In this document: positions 2,080 through 25,685 of the stretch, in pieces
Layout of the letters: every line of letters begins with the position of its first letter
Numbering within the stretch: the stretch's first letter is position 1
Made by a program: the position numbers and the translations under genes
Source: an uncultured delta proteobacterium
GTDB taxonomy: Bacteria > Desulfobacterota > Binatia > Bin18
Assembly (NCBI GenBank): GCA_963733195.1
Contig: CAVTCR010000026.1
Span: forward strand, 56,046 to 120,045
DNA: 64,000 nucleotides
Direction of reading: 5' to 3'
The notes under the pieces: model-generated
What the model saw: only the letters and a program-made list of their open reading frames with translations
Databases searched by the model: none
What the model was told of the DNA's origin: nothing

Positions 2080-2101
2080 AGCCTGAGATGTTAGTGTGAG
2101 C

Positions 2102-3304
2102 TTACGCCGCGCACGACGCTGCTAGACTCGATAGCGCCACCTGACGACGTCCTTCACGGACATCGTTGCGGTCAAAACCGTTAGTGAGATAGCTAAACGA
2201 GATTCCTGTTGCCGGATCGGCCCATGCGGTCTGGCCGCCGAAGCCAGGATGTCCAAACGACTCTGGCTGAATTGGTACGACCAAAGCCGCGTTTATTCGC
2301 ATTGCCGTCGCCGCCGGCAATGGCAATGCCGAGCCCGCGATTAGCGAGCATACCGAGATACGGATCTTTGAGTTCGCCGGTACGAACGCGACGGGCTTCG
2401 CGTAACATCTCTGGCTGCCAAATCTGTTTGCCATCGTACGATCGTCCGTCGTTTAACAGTGCTTGATAGAATAGTGCAATGTCACCGGCAGTAGTGATCC
2501 CGCCTGCCGACGGTGACCCTGCCATTCTCGTCGCGAGTTCATTGAGTTCAAGTACGCCTTCTTCGCTAATCGCCGATACGCCACCACGCGGTGGTTTCAT
2601 GCCCATTTTTGCATACTCTTCAGCAGTCATCGGCTGCCCAACCCAGCGCAGTTCAGCAACGCGCTTGTTCAGCTCCTCGGTGATCTTTACTCGCAAGATC
2701 GGGAATTCCAAGAGGTTCGGCGATACGGGTACGGACGAAATCGTGATACGCCTGTCCACTAGTACGTTCGACGATGTCGGCAATCGGCCAGAAGTTGGCA
2801 GAAATGTGATAGACAAATTTCTCGCCTGGTTTATGGTCGGTTTTCCACTGCGCGTACCGTTCCGTGCGCCGTTTTTTATCAGCCCAATCTTTCTGCCAGT
2901 GCGGTGCATACGGAATGGCTGACGTATGAATGAGACATTGCTCGACGGTGATCGCGTCTTTGCCGTTGGTGCCGAACTCAGGCACGAATTTCACGATCGT
3001 GGTCGCCTATCTGCAGTTTCCCTTCCTGCATCAACATCCACGCCGAGGCTGCAGTGAACGCTTTGGTGGCAGACATGATGACGAAGAACGTCTCATTGGT
3101 GGCCGGTTTTTCAACGCCATCTTGGACAGCGCGACCAAAGGTCTGCATCGCTCCGATCTTGCCATTACGGGCGATAGCAACCTGACAGGCAGGCAGAATG
3201 CCTTCTTTCACTTCACGTTCTGCACGTTCAAAGAGTGCTTGTACTTTCTGTGAATCAAGCCCGACTTCCTCTGGGCTCTTAGCGAAAAAATGTGATGCTG
3301 GCAT
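2102..3304 (-). CDS. Serine hydrolase, beta-lactamase family (split over 4 frames by indels)
   Basis: SATK (SxxK), LIHTS, PGEKFVYH and FGHPGFGGQ..WADP motifs in consecutive ORF fragments; RBS aaggaggg. Confidence 0.82.
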
Positions 3305-3420
3305 GTGACTCTCCCTCCTTATGCTTATTGTTCTAAAGGTAGCTCTACCAATAGTTCGGACAAAAATCAGACGGCGATAACGCCATAAGTCCTCGCTATT
3401 CATCCCGTCATCAGTTAATT

Positions 3421-4463
3421 CTAAGGCACTAGGACCCCCCGGCCAGGCAGACGGCCCGCAATGAGATCGTGCATCGCTTCATTCACCTGGTTAAGCCGGT
3501 ACTCACGAGTAGTGAGTTTTACTTGTCCTTGGGCCGCCAAGGATCATTAGCGCGGACAGCTCGGAATAATTGCCGACCAGCGTGCCGACTACGCTGAACT
3601 CACTAAAAATCATGTCGATCGCCGGGACCTGCACGACTCCCGCCATAGCCAACGACATAGTAAGTCCCGCCGCGCCGTAACATTGCCATGCCCTGGTCAG
3701 GCGTGCCCTTCTCGCCGACAAAATCGATCACCGCATCGGCTCCACCGTCAGTCAGGCGGCGAAGGTCATCCACTGCACCACGCCCGCCTAGCATGCGGTG
3801 TTGAAAGCCCATCTCTGCGGCGAACTGTAAGGCCGGTTCGGAAGTATCCACAATGATAATCGTTCCGGCACACAGGCTGCGCAGCACCTGGGCGGCAATG
3901 TGGCCCAGCCCACCAAAGCCGATAATGGCAGCGGTCATGCCTGGCTTTAAGATTTCTGAGGCTTTGCGTGCTGCCCGGTAAGCAGTGAGACCAGCATCAG
4001 CATACGGTGCCACGGTTTTGGGCTCAAGATTGGCGGGCAGTTTAATCAACGAGCGCTCTTTGGTGTGCAGGAACTGGGCAAAGCCGCCATTATGGCTGAT
4101 GCCTGGAAACCAACTATTCTGGCAGTGCATATCCTCACCACGCCGACAGGCCGGGCAGGTACCATCGGTGACCAAAGGATGGACAATCACCGGGTCGCCG
4201 GGTTTGACTGTCTTCACGTTCGTTCCTACCTCGTGGATCCAGCCAGCGTTCTCGTGGCCGAGAATATAGGGGAGGGGACGGTCTACTTTTGCGCGCCAGA
4301 TGCCTTCGACAATATGCAAGTCCGTCCGACACAGTCCAGCTCCGCCAACACGAACGATGACATCGTCAGGCTCGTGAATCTGTGGATTGGGAAGCTCTTC
4401 AAGTTGAAGAAGCTGTTCTCGTTTCAGCGTTTCATCGAATGCATGAAGTCGAGCTGCTTGCAT
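3421..4463 (-). CDS. NAD(P)-dependent Zn alcohol dehydrogenase (frameshifted near the C-terminus)
   Basis: GLCRTDLH, GHENAG and GFGGLG motifs; C-terminus ...GRLPGRGVLVP* recovered in another frame ending at 3421. Confidence 0.88.
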
Positions 4464-4681
4464 GGCTTCTCCTTATATCTGCCGTATTCTTTTGTTGTCC
4501 TTGCGCGCCTCATACACTACAGGCCGGGCGTTCGTCAACGCAAAAGCACGGCTTCGATGCAACTCGTCACGGCAAAAACGTTGACAATACAGAAGCGTAA
4601 TGCCAAGGTAAGCGCCGAAGTTTAGTCCAGAACGTGTAGCCCTGCTCGTGGCGATACGTAGAATGAGGAGGGGACCGGTTC

Positions 4682-5217
4682 ATGAAGAAAAATATCAATC
4701 GTCGTCAGTTCTTGCAGACGAGTGGTCTTGCTATTGCTGGCGCTGCTGTTGCTGGTACGACCGGGACACTACTGCTTGACCCGAGTGCAACTTGGGCAGT
4801 AGCAAAGGCAACACTCGATGACCATACGACTAAAACACTCGTTGTTATGTGTCGCCAGATCTACCCACATACAGTGATTGAGGATGCGGAGTATGCCAAG
4901 ACTGTCGAAGGGTTTACGAAGAAGGCAAGTACCGATCCCAGCCTTTGCTCAGCTATTGCGCGAGGGTGTTGCTACACTTGATGCCACTGCAAAAGGCAAA
5001 TGGCTAGAGGTTAAAGATGAGGACAAGCTTCAAGTCTTAAAAAGTATTGCTGACTCGCCATTTTTCCAAACAGTGCGAGGGACATTGGTCGGATGCTGGT
5101 GGACCGTACAACCTGCCAACGGTGTGGAAGAAGTTCGGCTACGAAGGGTCTTCGTGGCAGTTGGGTGGGTATCTTGCTCGTGGCTTTGACGACATCAAGT
5201 GGTTGCCAAAGGAATAG
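4682..5217 (+). CDS. Tat-exported small subunit of a GMC flavoprotein dehydrogenase (gluconate 2-dehydrogenase subunit 3-like), frameshifted
   Basis: NRRQFL Tat motif; C-terminal VWKKFGYEG..GGY..RGFDDIKWLP in a shifted frame; directly upstream of the GMC gene. Confidence 0.75.
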
Positions 5218-5231
5218 TGAGGGGAAGGATC

Positions 5232-6801
5232 ATGGCGAATTATGAATTAAAAGACGATAGCGTGGTCGTCATCATCGGCTCTGGTGCGGGCGGTGGTACC
5301 CTGGCCAATGAATTGTGTCAGAAGGGAGTGAAGGTCGTTCTCCTTGAAGCTGGCAAACGCATTGAAATTAAGGATTTTGTCAATGATGAGTGGCCGATGT
5401 TCAACAAGATCGCCTGGCTCGATAAGCGGACTACTTCTGGGTCGTGGCGTGTCGCCAAGAATTTCCCCAATCTTCCAGCATGGACAGTGAAAGCTGTCGG
5501 TGGAACGACTGTACATTGGGCTGGAGCGTCGTTGCGATTTAAGGACTTTGAATTCAAAGCCCGCTCGACCTACGGTGAGATTGCTGGTGCGAACTTGCTC
5601 GATTGGCCAATCACACTTAGCTGATTTAGAGCCGTACTATGCGCGCGCTGAGGATAAGATGGGTGTAACGGGGACCAATAGTATTCCTCGCTTGCCGGGG
5701 AACAATAATTTTAAGGTCCTTGCCGCTGGAGCGAAGAAACTCGGTTACAAGCAAGTCCACACTGGCAATATGGCGATTAACTCACAGCCGCGTGACGGAC
5801 GTAGCGGATGTATGCAAATTGGCTTCTGCTTTGAAGGTTGTAAGAGCGGAGCAAAATGGTCGACGTTGTATACGGAGATCCCCAAGGCCGAGGCGACAGG
5901 CAAACTTGACTTACGACCAGAGAGCCAGGTATTGCGTATTCTTCATAACGACAAAGGAAAAGTTTCTGGCGTTGTCTATGCCGACAAAAACGGCAAGCAG
6001 GTCGAGCAAAAAGCCCGGGTCGTCTGTGTCGCTGCGAACTCAATCGAAAGTGCGCGGCTGCTTCTCAACTCTTCCTCGAACACATTCCCAAATGGGTTGG
6101 CCAATTCTTCTGGACAGGTTGGGCGCAATTATATGCGCCATATGACTGGCAGCGTATATGGCATGTTTCCTAACGAAGTGAATATGCACCGTGGCACGAT
6201 AATGGCTGGGATTGTTGAGGACGAAGCGATCAATGATCCGAAGCGTGGTTTTGTCGGTGGCTATCATATGGAGACCATTTCACTTGGGTTGCCGTTCATG
6301 GCCGCGTTTCTTGATCCGGGAGCATGGGGACGCGACTTTACCGAGATGCTCGATCAATTTAATCACATGGCTGGCATGTGGCTGGTCGGTGAGGATATGC
6401 CGCGTGAGAGCAATCGCATCACGTTGCATGCAACTGAAAAAGACCAGTTTGGTATGCCCATTCCTAACGTGCATTTTGATGACCACGACAACGATGTTGC
6501 AATGCGTAAGCACGCCTATAAACAAGGATCTGCAATCTACAGTGCGGTTGGCGCGACGAAAAACTTTGAAACGCCGCCGTATCCTTCAACGCACAATTTG
6601 GGGACCAACCGCATGAGCGAGAAGTCGCGCGACGGTGTGGTGAACAAGTGGGGACAATCCCACGATATCGCTAACTTATTTATTTCTGATGGCAGCCAAT
6701 TTACGACCGGCGGGGCGTCAAATCCAACTTTGACGATTGTAACTCTTGCAATTCGGCAGGCTGAGTATATTACTGAGGCGATGAGTAAGCAGGATATCTG
6801 A
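5232..6801 (+). CDS. GMC family FAD oxidoreductase with Cys-rich 3Fe-4S-type motif (one frameshift near 5620)
   Basis: IIGSGAGGG, VGGTTVHW, CMQIGFCFEGC, HNLGTNRM and NPTLTI motifs. Confidence 0.9.
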
Positions 6802-6923
6802 ACGACTAAAGCATAATACGTAATAGCGTAATCCCCACCGCTCCCTTTACGTTTTACGTATCTCTACTAGCCGGAATAGCCCATGGTCTCATCCAGGGCC
6901 ATGGGTGTAGTAGGAGCGCGGCT

Positions 6924-7277
6924 CTACGACGCCGTAAACCCTTTCACGTATTTAATCAGCGCACGAATTTGCTCATCGTTGAGAATTCCCTCATACGAAG
7001 GCATGAGCGGTGATTTCCCGACACTGGCGCCACCTTCCTTGAGGAGTTTCGTCAGATACGCGGTATCCTTGCCTTTGAGGACAGTGGCCAAGTTTGCTGG
7101 CTTAGGTTGTAATACTTGAGCCGTTGGTCCGTCGCCTTTGCCCTCAGGACCATGGCACATGGCGCAGGTTTGGTCGTAGAGTTGCTTCGCTTCTTGCCCA
7201 TAGGCAGCCTCGGCGGCAAGATAAATAAAAAAGACACTCGCAGTGACTAAGAGCACTGGCTTCTGATACATCTTCAT
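6924..7277 (-). CDS. Monoheme cytochrome c
   Basis: Signal peptide, CAMCH heme motif and distal Met in LMPSY. Confidence 0.88.
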   Translation of the reverse strand: MKMYQKPVLLVTASVFFIYLAAEAAYGQEAKQLYDQTCAMCHGPEGKGDGPTAQVLQPKPANLATVLKGKDTAYLTKLLKEGGASVGKSPLMPSYEGILNDEQIRALIKYVKGFTAS

Positions 7278-7559
7278 TCATGTGTTCCCTTCAAAGACAG
7301 CAAGGATAATACACAAACGCTGACAATATAAACGAGGAAATGGGAAAACTAAAAGGGGGAAAGGCGAAACGGGGCAAAGGGGAAACGGAAAATAAAAAAA
7401 GCTCTAAACTACAGGCTGTAGGGAAAAACCAAACCGTTTGATCTACCCATCTCGCCGGCGCTCTCCCCAACGGCGCCGCCCCTGACTCCGCAGTGAAATG
7501 TCTGCCGGCCGGCTGACCGCCCCGCGACCGACCTTTGCCTGACGCTTCGTGCTTTTCCA

Positions 7560-7840
7560 GAGACGCTGCTATCTCTGTGGTTGAGCGCTCCTTCACGAAA
7601 ATCCCTTTTACTCGTATAGGTGTGTGAGATCGGAGTGGTTCCGATTAACGTCCAGCGTACATCCTTGGCCGAGATATTGAAGAAGGCCGTCCCGTCTCCA
7701 CACCACGTACCATAAAGAGCGCACAGTTTCGTTTCACCTGATCTTCCTGCCAGGTCAGACTGGGGCCAGCGCGCCAGCAATCCTTCCAACGCGATCATTG
7801 CTTCGAGCCGTGCTTAGCCTGCGCCCACGCAAAAATGGAT
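7560..7840 (-). pseudogene. Mosaic of gene remnants: cytochrome P450 C-terminal fragment plus SnoaL/NTF2-like fragment
   Basis: Minus-strand IHFCVGAG*ARLEAMIALEGLLARWP (P450 heme-Cys region with an in-frame TAA), followed by FFNISAKDVRWTLIGTTPISHTYTSK. Confidence 0.6.
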
Positions 7841-7984
7841 GCGCTCTTCATAAACGGCGACCATCGCCCGAGCCTCGTTCAGTGCGGAGCCGAAATCCTC
7901 TTCTAGGAACCCTTCGCGTCGGACAACGCGATGCTGCTTTCCTTGCGGCAAGTGGTGACCTCTTGAGGACGCGCGCACAAACCG

Positions 7985-9106
7985 CTAGAGCGTGAGCCCA
8001 TAAAACTCCGCTACGTTATCGTGGAGAATCCAGTTCTTCTGATCCTCAGTGAGCGACTGTGCGTGCGTGCGGAGGAGCTCCTGCGAATTCGGCCAGGTCG
8101 AATCGCTGTGCGGGAAATCATTCGCCCACATCAGGCGGCGCGGATTCAACATGCCGGCGCTCTTGAACGCCACCCAATCATCCTGGAAGGTCGTGTAGAT
8201 ATGCTCGCTGAAATACTCGCTCGGCTTCTTCGACAACTTGCTGGTCGTGAGCCAATAGCGATGGCGGTCATAAGCATGGTCCATGCGGTACATGAAATGC
8301 GGGACCCAACCAGCGTCCGCCTCGACGCAGGCGATCCTGAGGTTGGGATGCCGCTCGAACACCCCACCGAAAATGAACATCCCCATGATGTCCTGATTGC
8401 CGCGGATGATTGAGAGGAAGGAGTTGATCTTCGGCCCGCGGGGAGCGACCGCGATTCCTTCGCGCGACGTCAGAATATGGAAACTCAACGGCATTTGCAG
8501 CGCAATGGCCGCCTCGAAGAACTCATCATAGATCGGGCTGTCGTAGTCTTCCTGGATCGGGAAGCCGGGCATCATCACTCCGCGCAGGCCCATCGCCTTC
8601 ATCTTCTCGAGGTCCTTAATCCCTTCCTCAGGTGTCCGCATTGCGGTCTGGCCGAGCCCTAGCAGACGATCGGGATGGGCGCCGCAATACTCCGCGATCC
8701 ACAGGTTGTAGGCGTCGAAGCAGGCCTTCTTGTAGTCAGCATCGGGATGGTTGCACAGGACCATCCCGACGCTGGGATAAATGACCTCCGCGGCCACGCC
8801 GTCCCGCTCCTGGTCGGCCATGCGCGCCTCGGGGTCCCATCCCCCGCGATGGAGGTCTGTGAACTTGGCAAAACGCGCTGAGGTTGCCAAGCCCTCGGCG
8901 GAAACGCCCGCTGCCGCGACGAGTCCCATGGGGATGGTCTGCTGCATCCCGTCAATCACGTACGAGTCGCCGCTTTTGTCTTGCCACTCAACGTGCGGCG
9001 CAATGTCCTTGTACTTTTTGTCGATCCGTGCCGTGTACGTGTCCGGCGGCTCCATAATGTGAGAATCCGAGGAGATGATGGGTTTGTTGATGACGCTGTT
9101 TGCCAT
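7985..9106 (-). CDS. Amidohydrolase family protein (amidohydro_2 type)
   Basis: SSDSHIMEP, SFHI, VEADAGW and WANDFPHSDSTWP motifs. Confidence 0.9.
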   Translation of the reverse strand: MANSVINKPIISSDSHIMEPPDTYTARIDKKYKDIAPHVEWQDKSGDSYVIDGMQQTIPMGLVAAAGVSAEGLATSARFAKFTDLHRGGWDPEARMADQERDGVAAEVIYPSVGMVLCNHPDADYKKACFDAYNLWIAEYCGAHPDRLLGLGQTAMRTPEEGIKDLEKMKAMGLRGVMMPGFPIQEDYDSPIYDEFFEAAIALQMPLSFHILTSREGIAVAPRGPKINSFLSIIRGNQDIMGMFIFGGVFERHPNLRIACVEADAGWVPHFMYRMDHAYDRHRYWLTTSKLSKKPSEYFSEHIYTTFQDDWVAFKSAGMLNPRRLMWANDFPHSDSTWPNSQELLRTHAQSLTEDQKNWILHDNVAEFYGLTL

Positions 9107-9231
9107 GCTTCGCTGCTCCTTTCTTCAACTGCTCAGCCGCCTCGAATACTTGATAGGCGTGCCTGCATTATTTTATTTCAAATCTTCTCCAAATCGAGCT
9201 AGTTCATAGGTATAACTAAAAGTGGAGCACC

Positions 9232-9885
9232 TCACCGGGTGTCGTGCTCGAGCCGTACTGAAACTGGCGCTCGGTCTTCAGCTACATGCAGCGGAGCCGG
9301 CATCGCCCGCGCGTGATGCGAACGGTAGCTGCCAATGAGGATTACTTGCGCTAGGCCGCGACCGACGTTGCGCCAACGGTGTGGCGCGATACTCTTGTAG
9401 CGCACGCTGTCACCGACCCGCAGTTCAAACACGCGGTCACCGATGATGAGCTCGATCCGGCCTTGGATACAAATGAGCAGCTCTTCGCCTCGGTGCGTGA
9501 CGGTATCGGGCCCGCTGTCCTGCCCGGGCGGGATGAAGAATTCGTACGCGTCGAATTCGGGATCGCGAAGATCACCGGCGAGGGATTCAACACGCACGCC
9601 GTTCCGCGCCTGCACCGTCCGCCGACCGCGCGCCGGACAATAGCTTATGTCCAGCTCACCCGTGTCCTCGCCAATCAGGAAGCTCACGCGCTTGCGCAGG
9701 CCATTCGCGACCTTGGACAGGACCGACAAGGAGGGCACCATCTGCCCAGCCTCGATCTTCTGGATCGTGCTAACCGCCACCCCGCACCGCTGAGCGAGCT
9801 CCTGCAACGTCCAGCCCGCTTCCTGGCGGGCCGCGCGCACCCGTTCCGCAAGAACCGCTTCAGTGGAAGCTCGATTATCCGTCAT
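9232..9885 (-). CDS. XRE-family HTH plus cupin transcriptional regulator
   Basis: TLQELAQRCGVAVSTIQKIE HTH; HRGEE...GDS....PHRWRN cupin; start uncertain (ATG 9885 preferred over 10101). Confidence 0.85.
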   Translation of the reverse strand: MTDNRASTEAVLAERVRAARQEAGWTLQELAQRCGVAVSTIQKIEAGQMVPSLSVLSKVANGLRKRVSFLIGEDTGELDISYCPARGRRTVQARNGVRVESLAGDLRDPEFDAYEFFIPPGQDSGPDTVTHRGEELLICIQGRIELIIGDRVFELRVGDSVRYKSIAPHRWRNVGRGLAQVILIGSYRSHHARAMPAPLHVAEDRAPVSVRLEHDTR

Positions 9886-10621
9886 GATGAGCGCTTGTGA
9901 GCGCAGCTCCTGTTTCCAATATGCGTATACTTGTGCGTGTATCGGATTTTCCAATCCACCTACGGATATGAGCGTATCAGAAAACAGGACCACGTCAATA
10001 AGGAAGCCAGGCTCGTGCACTCGGGGTGTCTCAATCCGGGCCTGGCCGAAGGACGTGTTAATCCCGAGCTCGGGATACATACGTGTCTCGGTGTACCTCA
10101 ATTATGAATATAACTATTAGTGAATATCAACGTGAGAAAATACGAAAGTGATCAGCAGCTACCTATTTACGAAGCTTCACCTACAAGGCGTTTATCGGAC
10201 ATTTTGTGAGAGGAACGAGTTTGAGAGGTCAGTCTGAGCCTCGTTATACGGTTCCGGTGCAAATGTAGAGTCGAGCTGATAGTTATGCAGTATAAGCTTA
10301 TTTCACGAGGATTCTGCTGAGCTATTCAAAGGTCGTCACTTTAATTCCGAGATCATCACTCTCTAGATTCTGCCACGCTTACGAGCACCCACGTCTCGCG
10401 CTCTACTTTTCTGGAAACTGCCCACGCAAAGAGGAAAAATCCCGTATTCCCTGGGCGATTCCTTTACCACTAAAATAACTTGTTCGCCTCAGCATACGGG
10501 ATCGTATCTTCTGTGATCGCTTTGTAAGTGCCAGTTTCCATATGAGCGTGTGATGACTACCTGAGGACGGAACACACCACAGGCTGGCGGTTGGCTGGCA
10601 CGCCAGGAAAGGACACGAAAC

Positions 10622-10849
10622 ATGGGAACGAGGCAAGACCGTGAAGGGGACGGAGAAAACGCGGCCGCGCAACGCCGGATTGAGGAGCTGCGCGGTGAGC
10701 TCGAACGAAAACACAATGAACTGGACGGGCTGCTGCTGCGCAGTGAAACGCTGCACCCGAGTGCCTACGGGGCGCTGCAGGGGCAGTTGGAAGAGGAGAT
10801 TGAGAAGCTGCAGGCGGAACTCAAGAGCTTGACCGCAGTGGCCGGATAA
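10622..10849 (+). CDS. Small coiled-coil hypothetical protein
   Basis: RBS-like aggaaagga; heptad Leu/Glu pattern; GC-rich codon usage. Confidence 0.5.
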   Translation: MGTRQDREGDGENAAAQRRIEELRGELERKHNELDGLLLRSETLHPSAYGALQGQLEEEIEKLQAELKSLTAVAG

Positions 10850-11093
10850 ACAGGGACCAGCCGCCGGTGACACTGTGCGGGTGGTATCGGAAGGTGGCGG
10901 TCAGCGAGGAAGGGGAGCTGGAGACCACCATCCTGTGAAAAGTCGGTCAGTGACAAATGTGTATGGGAAGCTATTGGCACACTGCTCGGTAAAGGGTTGA
11001 CCGTATGTCTGCGCTCACAAAGCAAGACTGGAATCCTCCGCTGGGACGAGAGCACTGAGTGTCCAGGTCGTCACTCCCCAACTCTCGTCAAGT

Positions 11094-11519
11094 TTAGTCG
11101 CGGCCATAAGCCACACCTGATCGTTCACAGCGGGGAATTCGTGCAGTATCCTCAACCATGCGGAACAGAGGCGACTCTTGCGGAACGGTCGTCCCACGGA
11201 GCACAGCGACCGGCGTCACGCGGACGAGCGCATGGAAAAAGGGCGGCTCCCCCAGGCTCATGCCCACTGGGAGGACGTCCGTCAGGCGGCCGGTAAAGAC
11301 CAACGGCGATTGCGTGAATACATTGGTGCTCGTCATCTCCATCGTCGTCATACGTTGCTCCGGTAGTGAGGGGGGCGCGAACATACTGCAATCACCGGGT
11401 TTGCTCTCCGAGCCAGGTTCCCCACCGGACGCAAGTAGAGCACGGAGGCAGGAGGAGATGGCCCGCGCTGAGTCCACAGCGTCTACGAGCACAACGCTGG
11501 TCTGACCATGAAGGGTCAT
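11094..11519 (-). CDS. Hypothetical protein or remnant
   Basis: ORF with a protein-like central segment (SPLVFTGRLTDV...VTPVAVLRG); no family recognised. Confidence 0.25.
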   Translation of the reverse strand: MTLHGQTSVVLVDAVDSARAISSCLRALLASGGEPGSESKPGDCSMFAPPSLPEQRMTTMEMTSTNVFTQSPLVFTGRLTDVLPVGMSLGEPPFFHALVRVTPVAVLRGTTVPQESPLFRMVEDTARIPRCERSGVAYGRD

Positions 11520-11660
11520 ATGATGGAATAGAGCCGAGATACGAGAGACAGTTGAACCCTCAGCTCGGGGTTAACAGAGATTCAGCGATGGCCTCAGACC
11601 CCTAGACTCTTAGACTCTTCTTCCCATTTCCCCATTTATCCTTTCCCCTCTGCTACACCC

Positions 11661-11690
11661 TTGACAGCAGACGGTCTCTAATCGCATAAA
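11661..11690 (+). promoter_or_regulatory. Possible sigma70 promoter of the CuMMO operon
   Basis: Perfect TTGACA at 11661; only a weak -10 (cataaa) 18 bp downstream. Confidence 0.3.
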
Positions 11691-11779
11691 GGGCATGCAA
11701 TTATAGTTGGTTAGGCGAGTTTTTACTGTGGAGTCCGAGTCATTTGGATGTGCATGGCAAGCTTTAGATTATTCTATTC

Positions 11780-12355
11780 ATGATGACAATGATCGTTGGT
11801 TTGATAATGGGTTCGACAGCTTGGGCACATCGCGATCGAGGACCTGATGATCCATGTCGAAAGCAGATAGGAGATTCGCTATTGCACATCACACTCTACC
11901 AACCGCACTTTGATCCTGATGCTGAGTATTGCGAAGAGGTTCCGCGTGCAGGGAGGACAGTGGTGGTAGTAGATGTGACTGCTGGTGAATTGCGGCAAGT
12001 TCCAATCAGTGTGGAAATGGTAGCTCAGTAGTGAATCTGGGCAGTCGCGTTCGGTGTCTGTCGCTTCCGGCAAAGATATTGGATCGAGGGATGGTAGATT
12101 CTGAAGTGGTTTTGGACGAGGGCAACAATTACGTTGCTGAGGTTGTGGTTGACCTGGGGGCCGGAAAGGAACCGCAGAAATTTTCCTTTCCTATTCAAGT
12201 GGATCCATGGTATACCGCAATGGTGAAACCGGCATTGATGGTTCGTTGGGTTGCTCCTAGTAACGGTAATTTCGGTGATTCGTTATCAGATGAGTTCTCG
12301 ACAGCAGGAAGAGATGTCAGTAGGCAAAAGAAGGGTACGCCGAGTAGCAAATTAA
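11780..12355 (+). CDS. pmoD: PmoD/AmoD-family periplasmic copper protein with C-terminal TM helix (two frameshifts, ~12030 and ~12243)
   Basis: Signal peptide AWA|H; DDPC...HITLYQP...EYCEEVP.AG..VVVVD...ELR matches the PmoD/AmoD pattern; TM VGLLLVTVISVI and stop 12355 sit just before the RBS of subunit C. Confidence 0.75.
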
Positions 12356-12367
12356 GGAGGGTTCTAT

Positions 12368-13225
12368 ATGGCACAGTCACAAGTGGTGCGGCAGACGCCA
12401 CGAGAAAATGGCCACAGTACAACCACGACTGGGTATTCCGCCAAACCGACAGGCTGGATGGTTGGGTGGAAGTCGTTGTTTGTCAGCTGCGCGATCATTA
12501 TGGCAGCGAACGTGTTCCTCTGGTTCTGGAATTACGCCTATATGTTCACGGCCGGGTTGAACTCGGCGAGTCCAGAGTTCACCTATTATTACCGGTCGCT
12601 CTTTTGGGGCGAGGTCATCACGTTAGGCTTGTTTACCGGTATATGGTTTGGCTGGTTGATTAGAACAGGCCGTGAGATGGTCGGGCAACCGTGCGAGCGT
12701 GCGGAAGAGGTGCGACGAATCGCGGTTCTCTGGAGCTTGATTGGCGCTACGAGCCTCTGCGTGTATCTGATGGCTAGCTTCTGGCCGAACTGGGACGGAT
12801 CATGGCATCAGACAATGGTGCGCGATACTGCGCTTACCCCGACGCACATCCCGATGTTCTACTTCTTCTTCCCGTTGTCGGTAACTTTGGCTTTAGGCTC
12901 ATACATCTACGGACGTTTTCGTATTCCCGCGTTATATGCCAAAGAGAAGGGATTTCCGTGGTCGTTCTTCCTGTTGATTAGTGCTGCGGTGCTGGAATGC
13001 ATGACGGTTGCTGCCAATGAGTGGGGGCACAGCCTGTGGATTTCTGAAGAGATTTTCTCGGTCCCCTTCCACTGGCCGTTCGTTGTGTACGGCTGGCTAG
13101 CTAGCGGTATGTTTGCGGTGTGGGGCGAGACGATCATCCGCTTGTTCGAGATTGAAAAGGCTGAAGAAGCCGCGACCTCAGGGACGTCAGGCGCGTCGTT
13201 GCGTCAGCAGGCGGTCACAGACTAA
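12368..13225 (+). CDS. pmoC: CuMMO (pMMO/AMO family) subunit C, divergent; substrate unknown
   Basis: DGSWHQTMVRDTALTPTH (D-x3-H-x12-H) and NEWGHSLWISEEIFSVPFH motifs; RBS aaggagg. Confidence 0.95.
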   Translation: MAQSQVVRQTPRENGHSTTTTGYSAKPTGWMVGWKSLFVSCAIIMAANVFLWFWNYAYMFTAGLNSASPEFTYYYRSLFWGEVITLGLFTGIWFGWLIRTGREMVGQPCERAEEVRRIAVLWSLIGATSLCVYLMASFWPNWDGSWHQTMVRDTALTPTHIPMFYFFFPLSVTLALGSYIYGRFRIPALYAKEKGFPWSFFLLISAAVLECMTVAANEWGHSLWISEEIFSVPFHWPFVVYGWLASGMFAVWGETIIRLFEIEKAEEAATSGTSGASLRQQAVTD

Positions 13226-13335
13226 GGATAATGAAGAATGTGGAATGGAGAATGAAAAATTCAGAGCGAAACGTTCTGAACTCTTCGTTCGTTTTGTATT
13301 TTTCACATTCTTAATTCTTCATTCTTAATTTTTAA
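13226..13335. repeat. Inverted pair of ~7-nt-period tandem repeats between subunit C and subunit A genes
   Basis: aatgaagaatgtggaatggagaatgaaaaat ... atttttcacattcttaattcttcattcttaatt. Confidence 0.7.
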
Positions 13336-13356
13336 TTAGACAGAGAGGATCGCCTC

Positions 13357-14161
13357 ATGGCAGCAGGGACAACAACAGTAACTGACATTGCCGATGCCGC
13401 CGAACGGCAAAAACGGCTGGAACTCAAAGCACTCCTGAACAAGGAGTACAAGTGGATTGATCGCAGCTGGGATATCGTCTTCTGGGTAACGGCGATTTTC
13501 GTGGTCGCCGGTGCAGCGGATATCACGAAGCAGTTGTTCGCCGGTGACTGGGACTTCTGGACAGATTGGAAAGATCCCCAGTGGTGGCCGGTGGTTACCG
13601 CTTTTGCCACCATCATCATTCCCTCTGCTCTGCAATATATCCAATGGGCAGCGTGGCGCTTCCCGACAGGTGCGACATATACATCCTGTTGTTTCTTTCT
13701 TGCAGCCTGGGTTGGACGCTACTTTAATTGGCACATTGCAGAAGCCTATCCGATGAACTTCGTGTGGCCTATTTCCACGATATGCGCAGGGATCATTCTC
13801 GACTTCACGTTGATGAAGACAAAAAGTTTCCTCATCACGTCTTTTGTCGGTGCGCATCTCTGGGCAGTGCTTAGTGTGGGCGTACAATTATGTTCCGCTA
13901 GCTCCCTTTCTACAGCCTGCGATGTTCATGGACCATGTTTTGACGCTCGCTGACGTCCAAGGCATCGTCTACATTCGATCGCAGACGCCAGAGTATCTGC
14001 GACTCATTGAGCGTGGCGCATTGCGAAGTTTTCTGGGTGAGACTCAGTACGTTTCGTTAGCCTTTGCTGGGACTGCGGCTTTCGCTGGATACTGGATTGG
14101 CCAGTTCATTGGTCGGTATCTCGCTGTGTGGCCGATCCGACGATACCTGAAGACTCTCTAA
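13357..14161 (+). CDS. pmoA: CuMMO subunit A, divergent (one extra base near 13870)
   Basis: GDWDFWTDWKD, P.GAT, W..RYF, YPMNFVWP, ADVQG..Y.R..TPEYLRLIERGALR motifs. Confidence 0.94.
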
Positions 14162-14176
14162 GAACATAAAGTACGC

Positions 14177-14431
14177 ATGGGGAAACGGATGAAAACCCGA
14201 CTGGCCGTACCATCTCGACACACCTGGCTGATACATGTGACCATGTTGGCCTGCATGTTCGTGCTGCCTGCACTAGCACACGCACACGGTGGGATGGGAC
14301 CTGATGAAATTGGCCCACCTATTGGCACCGCAGGGTTGATCGGTTTTGCCAGCTATTGGGTGGTGATGCTGTGGCCTTCAAGAAAGAAGAAAGATGAGCT
14401 CACAGACTGGACCCAACAGTCAACACCCTGA
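14177..14431 (+). CDS. Small exported/membrane protein 'x' between subunits A and B (may extend to ~14533 through indels)
   Basis: Signal peptide ending AHA|HGGMG, a TM helix (GLIGFASYWVVMLW), then a basic stop-transfer RKKK. Confidence 0.7.
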   Translation: MGKRMKTRLAVPSRHTWLIHVTMLACMFVLPALAHAHGGMGPDEIGPPIGTAGLIGFASYWVVMLWPSRKKKDELTDWTQQSTP

Positions 14432-14562
14432 CGCTGCAGCGAATGACCTGGACGCCCACGCAAGAGAAAGAACCCTCGTGTGAAGCGGATTCCGCATCTG
14501 CGTAAGGTCGAGGCGGGCGCGACAGATTTCTAGCGACCAGCCCGCGAGGAGGAAAGCGAGCG

Positions 14563-15811
14563 ATGGATAGGAAGCTTTTGACAATCCTCATGACACTGGC
14601 TCTTGTGGTAACAGTCAGTGTCTCGAAAGTATTCGCTCATGGGGAAGCTGGTGACGAACCGTTCCTTAAGAACATGACCACTGCGTTTTATGACGTATCG
14701 GTCTCACCTACGGAAATCGAGGTCGGTCAACCAGTAACAGTAACGGGAACAGTCAAAATTCTCGAGACTTGGCCGCACACACTTGAGGCACCCGAGCTTG
14801 CTGCGATCGTTCCCGTAGTTCCGGGGCCTGTATTCGTCATGAAAGACCGGACTATCAATGACCAAGCCTCGGTAGGTTCGTTTTTTGCCGAGAAGGGTGG
14901 GATTTATCAGTTTAAGATGACACTCCTCGGCAAAGAGCCTGGAAAATGGCATGTCCATCCAGGGATCGCGATCAGTGGAACCGGAACGCTGGTTGGGCCT
15001 GGTGAATGGGTCAACGTGAAAGCCAGCGCGACGAAATTTGAGTTTCCTGTGACAGTTGCTCAATGGGCAGACAGTTGAACTCAACACCTACGGTGGCCAG
15101 TTCGTGTGGTGGTGGTCGTTCGCCGGATTTCTCCTTGGGATGGCGTGGATGGTGTACTGGACATTCACGAAACGAACAGTGACAAACCTTGCGGTGACGA
15201 TGCAACTTCCGGTGAACGATGACGGACCTGACATTGGTCTCATCACGCCACGTGACCACATGTGGATGAATGTCATCGCTGGCCTGACCATAGCGCTCCT
15301 GATCGTTGGCTGGACCTACTCAGCAACCCAATATCCAGTGCGATGGCCGCAGCAGACCGACTGGATTACCCCGCGTCACATTTCCTCGGGAGACAAGATG
15401 GCCGAGGTACATGCAGGCGGAGCCACCTACGATGACGGAACCGATACGTTAGTGATGAAGCTCCAAGTCAAGAACACTACAGCCAGCGCGCTTACTCTTA
15501 ACCGTGTTGTTATCGGGATGGCGACATTCGTGCCGGGCGGGGAAGCGGAACAGGCGAAAGCTGGACCGCGCGATTTCGTCGGACCGCTCGAAGTGGAACC
15601 AAAAGGTGAGATTGCTCCGGGTGAGACGAAAGATCTGACATTGACGATCGCGAGCAAGATTTTCAGTACGGCACGATTGATCCCGCTGAATGATCCGCAG
15701 CAGTTTGTTGCGGCGCTCTTACGCTTTGAGAACGCCCAAGGCGGTCAGCAGTTAGTGACAGTGCGTTCGGGCGTCGTGCCGACCCAGTTCCGTGGACAGT
15801 TCTTGCCATAA
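14563..15811 (+). CDS. pmoB: CuMMO subunit B, divergent (one extra base near 15055)
   Basis: Signal peptide VFA|HGE, GKWHVHP, GPGEW, two TM helices and second cupredoxin domain with IAPGETK; RBS gaggagg. Confidence 0.94.
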
Positions 15812-15921
15812 TCTTGCGAAGGTGGGGAGAAAATCCCCACCTCGTCAAGCTGCCAAGAGTAAACAGCGCTTCATTTTTCCTTACTTTCTCTGCTTTCCCC
15901 TTAGCCTTTAGCCTATTTCCC

Positions 15922-16395
15922 TTAATATCCGGTTGTGACCTCAACCAAAATGTCATCTGGGTCTCGCACGTAGACCGACCCTGCGGTTTCTGTGCCATGC
16001 AAAGAATACGGTACGTGCTTTTCCTTAAGTGTCGTCAGGATCGCAGAGAATTTTTCTGAAGTGGCCTTGAGCGCGACATGATGCATACTGCCGACGCCTC
16101 GGACCGTTCGTGCCGGCCCTTTCTCGGGGAAATCGAAAAACGCTAACTGGTTGCCACCGCCCATATCGAGAAAGATATGGGTAGACGTGGGTTCGTCACG
16201 GTTCGCCATAATCTTGCTGAGGCGCATGCCGAGGACCTCAGTGTAGAAACGGATAGTCGTATCAAGGTCTGAACAAATCAGCGCGAGATGATCGACCCCG
16301 CCAGTGTTGACAGCTTGAGGCGTTCCCTCGTCGGTGGATAGATAGCGTTGTTTGAGTTCTTCACGACGGGCCTGGTACATACTCAGGTCTGACAT
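15922..16395 (-). CDS. VOC (glyoxalase/dioxygenase) family protein
   Basis: GVDHLAL..FYTEVLG, HHVAL, YVRDPDDILVEV motifs. Confidence 0.88.
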   Translation of the reverse strand: MSDLSMYQARREELKQRYLSTDEGTPQAVNTGGVDHLALICSDLDTTIRFYTEVLGMRLSKIMANRDEPTSTHIFLDMGGGNQLAFFDFPEKGPARTVRGVGSMHHVALKATSEKFSAILTTLKEKHVPYSLHGTETAGSVYVRDPDDILVEVTTGY

Positions 16396-16681
16396 AGCAT
16401 TCTCCTACTGTTGCTTCACTCGCTACGGGTCTGATGCCCGAAGCTTGCTGCGAGGTTCTTCACTATTCCTCGCTCTTTTTTTGTTTGTCAACTGCAGATA
16501 GATACTGGCTGACCTCCGCGGTAGACTTTCATTCCGAGTTGCGGCTGCGGCCTCAGATCTGGAACGGCTCGATTGTGACCCTCTGTCCGCCCCAACCTTA
16601 AACGCTGCCTCATGAGGTTCTGCTGCAGCACCTGGCAATGCAAACTTGCCCTGTTGCGCAAGTCAGGATAAACCTCCCCCG

Positions 16682-18450
16682 ATGTTTATTCGTCGTGTTT
16701 TGACATTCATACTTTTTATGGTGATGTTGATGGCTGCTGTGCTGCTCGTGCCAGCTGCATGGCTTCCGCAATCGTGGCAATCTTATTACGCCGCATGGTT
16801 TGGTGAACCCTCGTACGAGGCTCCGCCCAGCAGCCAAAAAGTCGCCATTCCTCCAGCTGAACCATTTTGCCCGGACCTGCATCCTGAGTGGCGCAAAGCG
16901 CAGGAGATCGACGGTGTGACGATTGACGAGTCACTTGCTTGTTCTCCTGATAATCCGTGGGCCATTGCTGCGTTTGTCAAAGGGACGAACAACGTGTCGA
17001 TGGACACGTTGATGAAATCTGGCTTAGCGACCGATGCGGTCGTGATGGGCGAAGATAAAGATGGCGATGGTGATCCTGATGTCGTCACCATCAAGCTAGA
17101 AGTTGCGGAATTCAACGGACGCTCGCCCGATATGTCTGAAGTCATTCCTGCGTTTTTATCGCTCCGGGTATTCAACCGGGATTGTGGGTGTTTGCGCCAA
17201 AGATTGCCGGGATGGCAACAAAGAATGCAGAGACAGTAGAAGCGAACGAATTCCTACGTGCGCCGTCGCCGGTGATCCGCGTTGAACAAGGTGACACCGT
17301 GCAAGTGATTCTTGAAAATACGCACTATTTTCCGCATACGATACATTTTCATGGGGTCGATCATCCTTATTCACATCATGAAGGCCATGGCAACGACGGA
17401 GTACCAGAAGCAAATGAACTGCCTGTGATGCCTGGCGAGAGCCGTGCGTATGAATTTTCGCAAATGGCTCAGTCAGCGATGCATACTGGACATGGGGAAG
17501 TCGATCCCGGCAGACGTCGCACGTTCGAGATGGCACCACGGCATCCAGGGACGATGTTCTATCATTGTCACGTGCAACCGCAGCATCATATTCACATGGG
17601 GTTACAGGGGATGTTTGTGGTCGAGGAGAATCGCCCGAACAATTGGGTGCAGACGTTAAATATTGGTGCCGGTCACGTCCGTCATCCTTCCGTGGCGGTG
17701 CGCGAGAAATATGTGCGTGAGTATGATCTCCATTTTCAGGATATCGATAGTCAACTGAATGATCTGATCAAAAGTACGAACGACCCGCGGGTGTTAGAGA
17801 AGCGGATGAATCGGCAGTATAACATCACAAAGCGTAGCGCCAATTACTTTCTGCTCAATGGGAAATCTTTTCCATATACATTTCGTGATTCGTTGGTAGT
17901 CGTCGAACCGAACGAGAAAGTAAAATTGCGCGTGCTCGCTGGTGGTGAGGAAGGGCTATCGCTTCACCCCCATGGCCATAAAGTAAAAATCACGCACTAT
18001 GATGGCGTGGAGCACAATCCTGTAGCGCAAATTACGCGCGACGTTGTGTGGCTCAGCATGGCCCAGCGGGTGGACTTAGAACTCAACACCACGAATGACG
18101 GTTTACATGGCACTGGCGATGGTGTGTGGTTTCTTCACGACCACAAAGAGCGTGCGTTTACAACTGACGGAATGCATCCTGGTGGCAGTGCTACTGCGAT
18201 CGTGTATCGATCCTATCTTGATGAACGTGGCTGGCCAAAACTGCAAGGCGTCGATTGGTCATTGTTCTTTACTCCACAGTATTATCGGCGTGAGATTCCA
18301 GTGTGGACAACCTATGATCCGACCGGCATGTTTGGCGAACCCGGCCCTGCGACCTCGCGTCTCGGACGGTTTATCTTGCTTGGTTTTGTTGTCGGCGCGC
18401 TCCTGGGATGTTTGACTGTCTTGCTACTATCATTGCGAAAACGTGCGTAA
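16682..18450 (+). CDS. Membrane-anchored two-domain multicopper oxidase (frameshift near 17155)
   Basis: HTIHFHG, YHCHVQPQHHIHMG, LHPHGH and FLHDH motifs; N- and C-terminal TM helices; DKDGDGD loop. Confidence 0.87.
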
Positions 18451-19168
18451 GGCGGACGTGATGTGGTTCATAGTGCTGCTGTTCTTTGCTCTTTTTGTTC
18501 CATCGCGAACTATAGAGGCGCAACCTGCGACGGAGAACCTCACTCCGGCAGACTCAGGCCATGCTCACCACCAACACCAGGCTGCCTCTCATGAACACCA
18601 CGGCATGCAGATGGACATGGGTGGCATGGTGATGAATGAGAATCATGACCAACTGCCGCGGGACTGTGGCAGGATTGCTGGAGAACAAAAAATTACAGTC
18701 CATGCTGGCAGGAAGTACGCGCAGCAGTTCAACGGCACGATGTTCGCGTACGATCAGCACGAATGGGATGTTGCTCCGTGCACGAAAGTGACTGTGACGT
18801 TGGAGAATGAAGATACTGTGCGTCATCAATGGATGCTGCACGGATTGCCACGCTATCTTCATGCCGAGGGCATGTTTCATCTCGAAGTCAACGGACGAGG
18901 GAGTAAGAGTGGAACGTTTATCACACCGGGTGCGAAGAAAACCTACCTTGTTCACTGTGATGTTGCCCAACACATGGAAAAAGGCATGAAGGCCCAGCTG
19001 AAAGTTGGCGGAGGCGATGGTAATCTGCCAAGTATTCCTGGTATTACCGGGGCTCGTTACCCAGAAACATATTCGGGTGCACGAGTTGGATGGGGTACGT
19101 GGATAATTCTTCTTCTGTGTCTGTTTAGTGCTGCTTTGACTGTACGTGGGTTGAGACGGTGGGAATAA
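18443..19168 (+). CDS. Cupredoxin-domain (type 1 Cu) protein with His/Met-rich linker and C-terminal TM
   Basis: Signal peptide, GHAHHQH..HEHHGMQMDMGGM, HQW...HCDVAQHMEKGM; overlaps the MCO stop. Confidence 0.82.
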   Translation: MRKADVMWFIVLLFFALFVPSRTIEAQPATENLTPADSGHAHHQHQAASHEHHGMQMDMGGMVMNENHDQLPRDCGRIAGEQKITVHAGRKYAQQFNGTMFAYDQHEWDVAPCTKVTVTLENEDTVRHQWMLHGLPRYLHAEGMFHLEVNGRGSKSGTFITPGAKKTYLVHCDVAQHMEKGMKAQLKVGGGDGNLPSIPGITGARYPETYSGARVGWGTWIILLLCLFSAALTVRGLRRWE

Positions 19169-19170
19169 AG

Positions 19171-19200
19171 CGTAGGGGCGACCGGCCGGTCGCCCCTACG
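19171..19200. repeat. REP palindrome (perfect, 30 bp) upstream of the RAYT
   Basis: cgtaggggcgaccgg|ccggtcgcccctacg. Confidence 0.9.
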
Positions 19201-24664: not shown

Positions 24665-25685
24665 TTATCCCTTCAACTCTTTCTTAATCTCATTGAGAAA
24701 GCGCCAGTCAGTGCCCTCAGTAATGATCTTCTGCGGGCTGCTCTTGATCATCCCAGCTCTCATGCAGGCGTAGGGCATAGAAGCGCACCGTATCTTCGGG
24801 GTTGTACTCTCGCCACTTGCCGTAAGGGATTTCTTTGAGCGCCTGGAGGAGGATGCTCGTAGTTGTCTGTGTAGCCCTTGCCTATGAGAAGCCGGGCAGC
24901 CTGCTCCGGCTCGCGGCCGCAAGATCCGCCCCCTTCAGAATCGCCCGCACTGCCCGCTTGGTGGCCACCGGATGCTTGCGCACGAACTCCCGGTTCCCGG
25001 CTACTATGCAGCAGAAATACTGCGACCAGGGTCGGTCGAGCGTGCCGTTGACCATCACGTGCCCGATATGCTTCGTCCGCAGTTCCTGTAGTTCTGGCGG
25101 AACGCCCATGAAGGCGTCGATCTTCCCCTCGGCGAGGAGCTGCATCGCCTCAGTTGGGGAATGCGTCACCCAGTTGATATCCTTCTGGGGGTCCAGGCCC
25201 ACGTAAGCCGCCATGCTGGCGATGAAGGTGATAGGGCCACTTCGCAGCTCGGGCACGGCAACAGTCTTCCCTTTCAGGTCGCGGACCGCGCGGACCTGAT
25301 CGGTCCCGAACAGCTCAAAGCAACCGATGTGGCCCCCCGCTAAGATAACGATCGGGTCCCCCGCGTCTAGCCGAATGACGGCATCCGGTACGAAGCACAT
25401 GTTAATGTTAGTCTCGCCAGAGGCCAGAGCTACCTCAAACTCGCGGGCGCCTTCTTTCTTGGCGTATTGCACCTCGGTAAAGCCCTCGTCCCGCAGGAGT
25501 TGTTCGGCCACGTACTGGGGGCCTGACAGAGGTCGCCGGGGTCGTGCCAACCTGAGCGTCGTTGTCTCCGGCGGCGGCTCCGCGGCGAGCGGCTCAGGTT
25601 TCAGCCAAGAAGTCCTGCGGTCCCGGCAAGGGCCAAACCCCCAGGAACTCCGCCGGCTTAAGCCTTGAGGGTGTCGCTGATTCAC
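24665..25685 (-). CDS. NitT/TauT-type ABC solute-binding protein, copy 2 (several indels)
   Basis: Paralog of 22929-24090: EPPPETTTLRL, GGHIGCFELFG, PWSQYFCC, TDWRFLNEIKKELKG. Confidence 0.8.

Follow-up and report, generated by a model that had tools for sequence, protein, structure and literature searches.

We analysed a 64,000-nucleotide (nt) stretch of DNA, hereafter the window, which spans positions 56,046 to 120,045 on the forward strand of contig CAVTCR010000026.1 (GenBank assembly GCA_963733195.1) and comes from an uncultured delta proteobacterium of the Binatia. The window carries a copper membrane monooxygenase (CuMMO) operon in the order D (PmoD-like)...C-A-x-B, which is the sole CuMMO locus of this genome. 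Between xmoA and xmoB lies gene x, present in the list of open reading frames (ORFs) and by direct reading as an ORF of 84 amino acids (aa) at 14177–14431 on the plus strand. We found that x is a genuine protein-coding gene, beyond chance, and that it is specific to one clade of CuMMO operons in Binatia. Its product is probably an extra subunit or a copper helper with an invariant histidine at its mature end.

ORF x has a positively charged start, a hydrophobic stretch leading to LPALAHA/HGGMGPDEIGPP (the slash marks the predicted cleavage point), a further hydrophobic stretch leading to YWVVMLWP, and then KKK. Of two possible start codons, the ATG at 14189 (MKTRL...) is likelier than the alternative ATG at 14177, because both the gene caller's version (P0001, 80 aa) and the same-genus ortholog, which also begins MKTRL, point to it. 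Protein and DNA alignments with relatives place full-length x at about 14189–14570, with a TAG stop at 14568–14570. The relatives are about 105–130 aa long, apart from a short-tailed group of 77–83 aa, and most of the 25 homologs returned by a word-indexed search have 123–132 aa; their alignment shows a conserved tail ending in ...RRKASDG, of which the window shows fragments in alternating frames. An earlier note on this DNA had described x as an AHA signal peptide, an HGG start, one transmembrane (TM) helix and a basic tail, an anatomy that held up, although the length it gave for the ORF did not. It had also proposed a continuation in shifted frames, VKRIPHLRKV...DF with a stop at 14533. The gene is indeed longer, but this continuation lies in the same frame, behind two TGA stops.

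In a profile search of 1.84 billion representatives (50% identity clusters), 96 x proteins passed a threshold of E<=1e-3 and 80 of these reached E<=1e-10; in two of the 96, the gene call merges x with xmoB or with the end of xmoA. Across 64 diverse homologs the H, P, W and P of x are invariant, and the Ala that precedes the His and the YW tyrosine are each kept in at least 90%. Position-wise statistics were drawn from 117 homologs, of which 13 were dropped (truncated, fused or without the anchor) and 104 used. The His is present in all 104, and the conservation of His1 that the earlier note had made a point to check is therefore complete: no polar residue other than the predicted His1 is invariant in the family. 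It is directly followed by Gly in 91 of the 104, Met stands at +3 (HGGM) in 70, and the spacing from His1 to the Tyr of YW is 22–24 residues in 103. The best score of x in the ESM Atlas was 0.76, below a useful level, and no longer, fused form of x turned up when such forms were sought, which is weak evidence.

Selection acts very unevenly along the gene. By the Nei-Gojobori method, over 11 ortholog pairs, the ratio of nonsynonymous to synonymous change (dN/dS) is 0.036 in the arm and TM helix (the proportions of changed nonsynonymous and synonymous sites, pN and pS, are 0.07 and 0.70, with synonymous sites saturated), as compared to 0.53 in the signal peptide, 0.38 in the linker and 0.17 at the C-terminal end. 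His1 and the helix are thus strongly constrained, and the pattern as a whole argues for a cleaved signal peptide before a tightly constrained mature core.

The residues around the predicted cleavage point agree with this picture. Ala occupies position −1 in 102 of the 104 homologs and a small residue occupies position −3 in 99 (A 82, V 13, G 3, T 1), with a median of 4 K/R upstream and a median best 10-residue hydropathy of 2.56, values consistent with Sec export and cleavage by signal peptidase I. According to the earlier note, three products of this operon (D, x and B) would expose His1 after cleavage, and the conserved A/H of all three supports it (D in 17/17 sequences, the His of x in 104/104, B in 21/21), cleavage being predicted by the −3/−1 rule only. 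If x were left uncleaved, it would form a two-helix hairpin (N-in, C-in) with AHGGM...GPP in a short periplasmic loop and an internal His. The length of the first hydrophobic segment, modelled by AlphaFold2 as a helix at residues 3–34, would suit such a hairpin, as would the fact that the cleavage of x is predicted by that rule alone. However, Ala at −1 and a small residue at −3 are preserved in a first segment that otherwise varies freely (dN/dS 0.53), as is typical of a site cut by signal peptidase I. XmoB moreover has the same A/H-G arrangement, which in the available text on PmoB corresponds to a known cleaved N-terminus with the His33 amino group as a CuB ligand (PMC11725843). We regard the hairpin as quite improbable.

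After the signal peptide, hydropathy and alignments leave one hydrophobic segment. The AlphaFold2 model of the same-genus ortholog has a helix at 3–34, coil at 35–44, a helix at 45–74 and a disordered tail (mean predicted local distance difference test, pLDDT, 66), so that the single TM helix proposed in the earlier note is seen both in hydropathy and in helix 45–74. The predicted His1 codon is 14285–14287, and the arm that follows has about 13 residues. The arm carries a net negative charge and the residues beyond WP a net positive one (median +2); the charge pattern and hydrophobic profile of x fit a predicted N-out, C-in topology. Beyond it, the tail of the ortholog has 18 K+R versus 5 D+E over 59 aa, and the protein-level motif within it, [RK]x[KR]xPxL[RK]x[IV]E, is retained by distant subgroups. 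Both the kept motif and the strongly basic character of the tail (18 K+R in 59 aa) would be expected of a single-pass sensor or regulator, in which the His arm senses copper or substrate and the tail signals to a cytoplasmic partner. However, 6 of 27 operon-linked orthologs lack the tail, so any role it has is not general; the stand-alone paralogs described below lack it too, the model shows it as disordered, and the xmoB ribosome-binding site limits how far its last seven codons can vary. A sensor is, in our view, very improbable.

The distribution of x follows a single type of operon. Relatives that carry it are metagenome-assembled genomes of Candidatus Binatia or Binataceae, or are labelled delta-proteobacterial. 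In the window's family, 33 of the 36 other sampled genomes have a Pfam AMO match, and x was detected in 51 of 55 genomes, a count that takes in the window's genome. By coordinates, it lies directly downstream of xmoA on the same strand in all 32 family genomes with the window's xmoA type, and also directly after xmoA in one genome of a sister family (L064). The order C-A-x-B is strict, being found at all 34 CuMMO-linked loci examined (8 and 21 loci, L024, L025, L064, and two soil metagenome contigs with a distant x subgroup). The homologs that the earlier note had expected at the syntenic place between xmoA and xmoB are therefore there throughout, at 34/34 loci and in 32/32 family genomes.

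Other CuMMO operons have the order C-A-B and gave no x match. One group is a second, divergent CuMMO operon in two genera of the family (L009–L023), whose subunits are about 30–45% identical to those of the window; the other is the pmoA/amoA-like operon of three genomes (L006–L008; Pfam AMO E about 1e-105 to 1e-113), two from another family and one (G024) from the window's. In these operons (L006–L023), the gap from A to B is short. In a phylum-wide sample, in which the best 14 candidates per genome were scored, x was found in 2 of 301 genomes, both of the window's family, and a single distant x homolog used as query gave no match in the genome contigs. One of three matches from a metagenome scan (L068) sits in a ribosomal-protein region and was rejected as spurious.

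The family also has members outside the operon. A short-tailed paralog of about 55–80 aa, with AYA/HRGFGPAELG..., one TM helix and KKK, is present at seven further loci (L034–L040, at about 4930–5170 in each). In closed genomes of one genus, a stand-alone paralog lies between aminopeptidase-like and FadB-like genes, hundreds of kb from either CuMMO operon, and most genomes of the paralog-bearing genus show both x copies. The stand-alone paralog could serve the x-less CuMMO in trans, or could have another role.

Gene x also carries signals of coupling to xmoB. Its last codons (...RRKASDG and the stop) read AGGAGG-N10-ATGGATAG, and its stop and the start of xmoB share an 8-nt overlap. The bases of the xmoB Shine-Dalgarno sequence and start within x are nearly invariant over 5 loci, and since these signals lie in the last x codons, the conservation of the tail end is partly a nucleotide constraint. 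Among 30 x-xmoB junctions, 19 have the 8-nt overlap, 2 have a 4-nt overlap, 8 have spacers of 13–45 nt and 1 is read through; the eight spacer-type junctions include all six short-tailed orthologs. In one relative (L052:3980-5605), x reads into xmoB as a single 541-aa ORF, probably an assembly indel and not a natural fusion. No promoter-like or terminator-like site was found between A, x and B. In related organisms, contigs from three RNA libraries span the A-x and x-B junctions, but this is no more than a weak hint. That x overlaps the xmoB start and contains its Shine-Dalgarno sequence would also be expected if x were a translated spacer that acts in cis only, delivering ribosomes to xmoB. 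However, the dN/dS of 0.036 on the arm and helix, the invariance of the His across 96 clusters and the paralogs without xmoB downstream speak against such a role.

In the window itself, x is frame-broken. According to DNA alignment with four relatives, it needs three frame changes: +1 near 14396–14399, +2 near 14447 and +1 near 14522, that is, one extra base after the KKK codons, two about 50 nt further on and one about 75 nt after that. Related Logan contigs, compared at a likeness of at least 85% and taken from one run of unrecorded kind and three RNA-library runs of four studies, omit 1 base at 14396 or 14399, 2 at 14447 and 1 at 14522; they also omit 1 base at 13870 or 13873, the site of the xmoA break, and one related contig omits 1 at 15054, the site of the xmoB break. 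None of the public sequencing runs contains the window, the best share of words being 0.12.

Gene D, xmoA, x, xmoB and the multicopper oxidase gene are all broken in the window, and the breaks are not at homopolymer runs. Both facts could be taken as signs of an operon decaying in this genome. However, breaks extend to unrelated genes. Comparison with a syntenic contig of a same-genus genome (L041) showed that its 437-aa gene corresponds to 4 frame pieces in the window (2138–3319), its 185-aa gene to 3 (4682–5214), its 533-aa GMC oxidoreductase to 2 (5199–6798) and its 588-aa multicopper oxidase to 2 (16682–18399). Because xmoA, xmoB, D, the multicopper oxidase and unrelated genes at 2–7 kb are broken as well as x, an assembly (consensus) error is likelier than gene decay. 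Consensus error also fits better than pseudogenes because XmoA and XmoC are about 91–98% identical to the same-genus proteins and no stops made by substitution were noticed. Taken together, a spacer acting only in cis, or a decaying operon in this genome, has a low probability.

At the scale of the window, frame breaks are dense at 2100–19200, with at least 12 in genes that are intact in the same-genus contig, and whole ORFs of 500–980 aa are found at 25000–64000. Low coverage or a mixture of strains may account for the broken region of the assembly. In another public assembly, the 81-aa P0010 on a 24.5-kb contig ends in ...QSTP like the window's truncated x and has further frame slips of its own; breaks of this kind thus occur in a related assembly too. 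Annotation would miss or truncate x wherever assemblies have such indels, as in this window.

The genes around x form a recognizable copper-enzyme locus (Table 1). For gene D, intact orthologs have 178–223 aa; the AlphaFold2 model has a pLDDT of 85, and its top Foldseek match is the soluble domain of PmoD (6cpd, E 1.5e-8, TMt 0.71). The residues A/H17, C26, H36 and C51 are invariant in 17/17 D sequences, and in nine relatives (L043–L047, L049, L050, L055 and L062) D is fused after its TM helix to an SCO1/SenC copper-chaperone domain. The two pieces of xmoA are at 13357–13953 and 13844–14161, and those of xmoB at 14563–15078 and 15056–15811; the relatives' genes are unbroken, with 260–267 aa for xmoA and 413–422 aa for xmoB when start codons are set by rule. 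XmoA is closest to PmoA and AmoA among solved structures (E about 1e-44). In XmoB, A25/H26 is invariant in 21/21 sequences, and the A/HGE start and an HxH motif are kept. In the available text of two sources, a 'Binatales pmoA-like' clade is placed among hydrocarbon monooxygenases (10.64898/2026.02.02.703227; PMC8262859).

Downstream, the multicopper oxidase occupies two frames (a 197-aa ORF at 16646–17239 and a 422-aa ORF at 17182–18450) and is followed by a cupredoxin-like protein at 18443–19168, with a His-rich N-terminal region and a hydrophobic C-terminal end. Both genes are syntenic with the operon in several relatives (L028–L032). A 9-bp stem-loop with a T-rich run at 13260–13280, after xmoC, is the sole terminator-like site inside the operon (plus strand, near a gene end).

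Table 1. Coordinates of gene x, its parts and the neighbouring copper genes in the window.
Feature	Position	Strand	Basis or remark
x signal peptide	14189..14284	+	Ends in AHA cleavage motif; −1/−3 residues in 104 homologs; dN/dS 0.53
x predicted mature N-terminus: His1 and Pro/Gly-rich acidic periplasmic arm (HGGMGPDEIGPP)	14285..14320	+	Invariant His
x single TM helix (...GFASYWVVMLWP) and KKK stop-transfer patch	14321..14392	+	Hydropathy, AlphaFold2 helix, near-invariant Y/W/P
x predicted basic cytoplasmic tail, motif RVKRIPHLRKV, end ...RRKASDG	14393..14570	+	Alignments; frame-broken in the window
xmoB Shine-Dalgarno AGGAGG (14547–14552) and ATG (14563) within the last x codons	14547..14565	+	Direct reading
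Gene D, PmoD-like periplasmic domain, signal peptide AWA/HRD, C-terminal TM helix	11780..12350 (end approximate)	+	Frame-broken, pieces in frames 2 and 1
xmoC, 285 aa, intact	12368..13225	+	Pfam AmoC E 4e-44; 90.5% identical to same-genus ortholog
xmoA, split by one extra base near 13870–13873	13357..14161	+	Pfam AMO 7–148 and 148–232 on two ORFs
xmoB, signal peptide VFA/HGE, split by one extra base near 15054	14563..15811	+	Pfam Monooxygenase_B 1–140 and 140–379
Downstream copper genes: multicopper oxidase, then cupredoxin-like protein	16646..19168	+	Pfam Cu-oxidase_3/_2

Several known systems resemble x in part. In the available text of two reports, supernumerary single-TM subunits are a 23-residue protein in the particulate methane monooxygenase (pMMO) of Methylocystis sp. 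Rockwell, a 46-residue ORF in the ammonia monooxygenase (AMO) of Nitrosomonas europaea and 'AmoD' in the AMO of N. halophila (PMC11725843, PMC12804982). Like these, x is small, single-pass and tied to a CuMMO; the known helices, as described there, adjoin PmoC or AmoC. Their genes lie outside the operon and their products lack a signal peptide, whereas x is encoded between A and B, is larger, and has a predicted cleavable signal peptide, an invariant His at the predicted N-terminus and a long basic tail. No sequence similarity connects the two (0 matches among PDB chain sequences). For the helices, the same text shows physical association with the enzyme, whereas x is known here from genes alone.

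Position links x to an archaeal group. The sources, as far as available, describe AmoX, AmoY and AmoZ of archaeal AMO and an 'amoX/pmoX' of Candidatus Angelarchaeales in C-A-X-B order (PMC9038741; 10.1101/2022.04.06.487334). All of these are, like x, hypothetical small proteins whose genes lie in the CuMMO cluster. The Angelarchaeales X occupies the same place between A and B, a likeness of position, and all these archaeal proteins belong to a different domain of life from x. Genetic linkage to the CuMMO genes is shared by AmoX and x, but not by the bacterial extra helices. The exhaustive profile search returned x-type sequences only.

Closer to the window, Murphy et al. 2021 reported 'CAxB / CAxxB' arrangements in 8 Binatota genomes, where x is a hypothetical protein between CuMMO A and B (PMC8262859). 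By its place in the operon, that 'x' is almost certainly the same gene, an identity that we infer from the available text. There it is marked as hypothetical only, and the portions of the paper available do not describe a signal peptide, invariant His, TM helix, xmoB coupling or paralogs (PMC8262859). Our literature searches found no account of how the x protein is built, of the invariant His, of the link to xmoB, of the confinement of x to a single CuMMO clade or of the paralogs.

Copper ligation by an N-terminal His is familiar from the histidine braces of CopC, lytic polysaccharide monooxygenases and YcnI. Gene x differs from such proteins in having neither a second His nor a folded domain, and its copper binding is putative. 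In x, a predicted signal peptide ends in a small residue and leads into His-Gly, so that cleavage would free the His alpha-amino group, and XmoB begins in the same way (A/HGE); in the CuB site of PmoB, His33 ligates through its amino group and side chain, according to the available text (PMC11725843). A derivation of x from the 5' end of xmoB was considered and rejected as unproven: hhalign gave a probability of 43%, and common descent of x and XmoB is not shown because this value comes from the signal peptide and AHG only. The copper protein PmoD/AmoD carries a cupredoxin-like domain and, at its C-terminal end, a TM helix. Like x, it belongs to the accessory proteins of CuMMO operons that face the periplasm and are tethered to the membrane, but x has only a 13-residue arm before its helix and no cupredoxin-like domain, and gene D is the PmoD-like protein of this operon.

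We estimate the probability that x is a fourth, accessory subunit of this CuMMO at about one half. The proposed steps, which cover its cleavage, topology, association with the enzyme and any copper role of His1, would be as follows. The precursor would be exported by Sec and cut after A-x-A, and the mature protein would present the invariant His first, on a Pro/Gly-rich, net acidic periplasmic arm of about 13 residues. The single TM helix (...YWxVxLWP) would anchor x N-out, C-in, as a type I single-pass protein, and a Lys/Arg-rich tail of variable length would sit in the cytoplasm. Made in step with XmoB through the stop/start overlap, x would use its helix to dock onto the membrane portion of the CuMMO, like the supernumerary helices of pMMO and AMO, and its His1 tip would be held near the periplasmic membrane face, where the copper sites of the enzyme lie. 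Complex prediction that combined x residues 33–80 with same-genus XmoC, XmoA and XmoB, each supplied as an alignment, gave the three scores 0.62, 0.60 and 0.60, as compared to 0.00 in both partner-replaced controls; because the control with XmoB replaced scored 0.50, the outcome speaks neither for binding nor against it.

Several observations weigh against a dedicated subunit of this kind. Gene x is frame-broken in this genome's assembly. Its profile had 0 matches at E<=10 among PDB chain sequences, and Pfam and NCBIfam scans of 8 homologs gave sub-threshold noise only, without a match to any family. The Met of HGGM is replaced in 34 of the 104 homologs, including operon-linked copies (HRGF in L064), the tail is missing from the six operon-linked orthologs mentioned above, and no homolog (0/104) has a second His in mature residues 2–25, which leaves His1 as the sole invariant possible ligand. 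The family as a whole is not bound to the operon, since a stand-alone paralog lies far from any CuMMO. Finally, the protein, its cleavage and its place in the enzyme are here read from the genes.

The stand-alone paralogs would suit a general helper better than a dedicated subunit, and x may instead be a periplasm-facing copper chaperone or assembly factor, whose membrane-tethered His1 arm hands copper to XmoB or XmoC or aids the insertion of these subunits, acting transiently and outside the finished enzyme. The invariant His1 and the copper-trafficking genes around the operon, namely the PmoD-like D (SCO1/SenC-fused in 9 relatives) and the multicopper oxidase, would be in keeping with this role. 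However, the stop/start overlap in 21 of 30 junctions and the strict place between structural genes suggest stoichiometric and not catalytic amounts, and a single His without a conserved Met or Cys would make a weak copper site. We consider a chaperone rather unlikely and continue to favour the accessory subunit.

Copper binding by His1 of such a subunit is plausible. The earlier note had put x forward as a minimal Cu-binding peptide or a supernumerary subunit; synteny, conservation and selection give that proposal partial support, but a two-His brace within x alone is excluded, because none of the 104 homologs has a second His, and a partner protein would have to supply it. That x is a copper-binding fourth subunit, in which, after cleavage, the free amino group and imidazole of His1, presented at the membrane surface by a short, rigid Pro/Gly arm, complete or feed a copper site of the enzyme, is unlikely and a tentative proposal; XmoC, XmoA or the neighbourhood of the XmoB CuB site could house such a site. 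If true, x would be the first metal-site component of a CuMMO to come from a separate gene in the operon, which would explain why the gene is kept welded to xmoB in this clade.

These results bear on two long-standing open questions, the make-up and the copper sites of CuMMOs. In the available text, the unexpected small helices of pMMO and AMO are recently identified components with unknown roles (PMC11725843, PMC12804982). For x, the partner is indicated by the genome itself and not by map-based discovery, as the gene lies between A and B, is coupled to xmoB and is co-inherited with them, and it offers one invariant residue, His1, that can be mutated. Gene x thus gives clear predictions for heterologous expression of the hydrocarbon-type monooxygenases of the widespread, uncultured Binatia.

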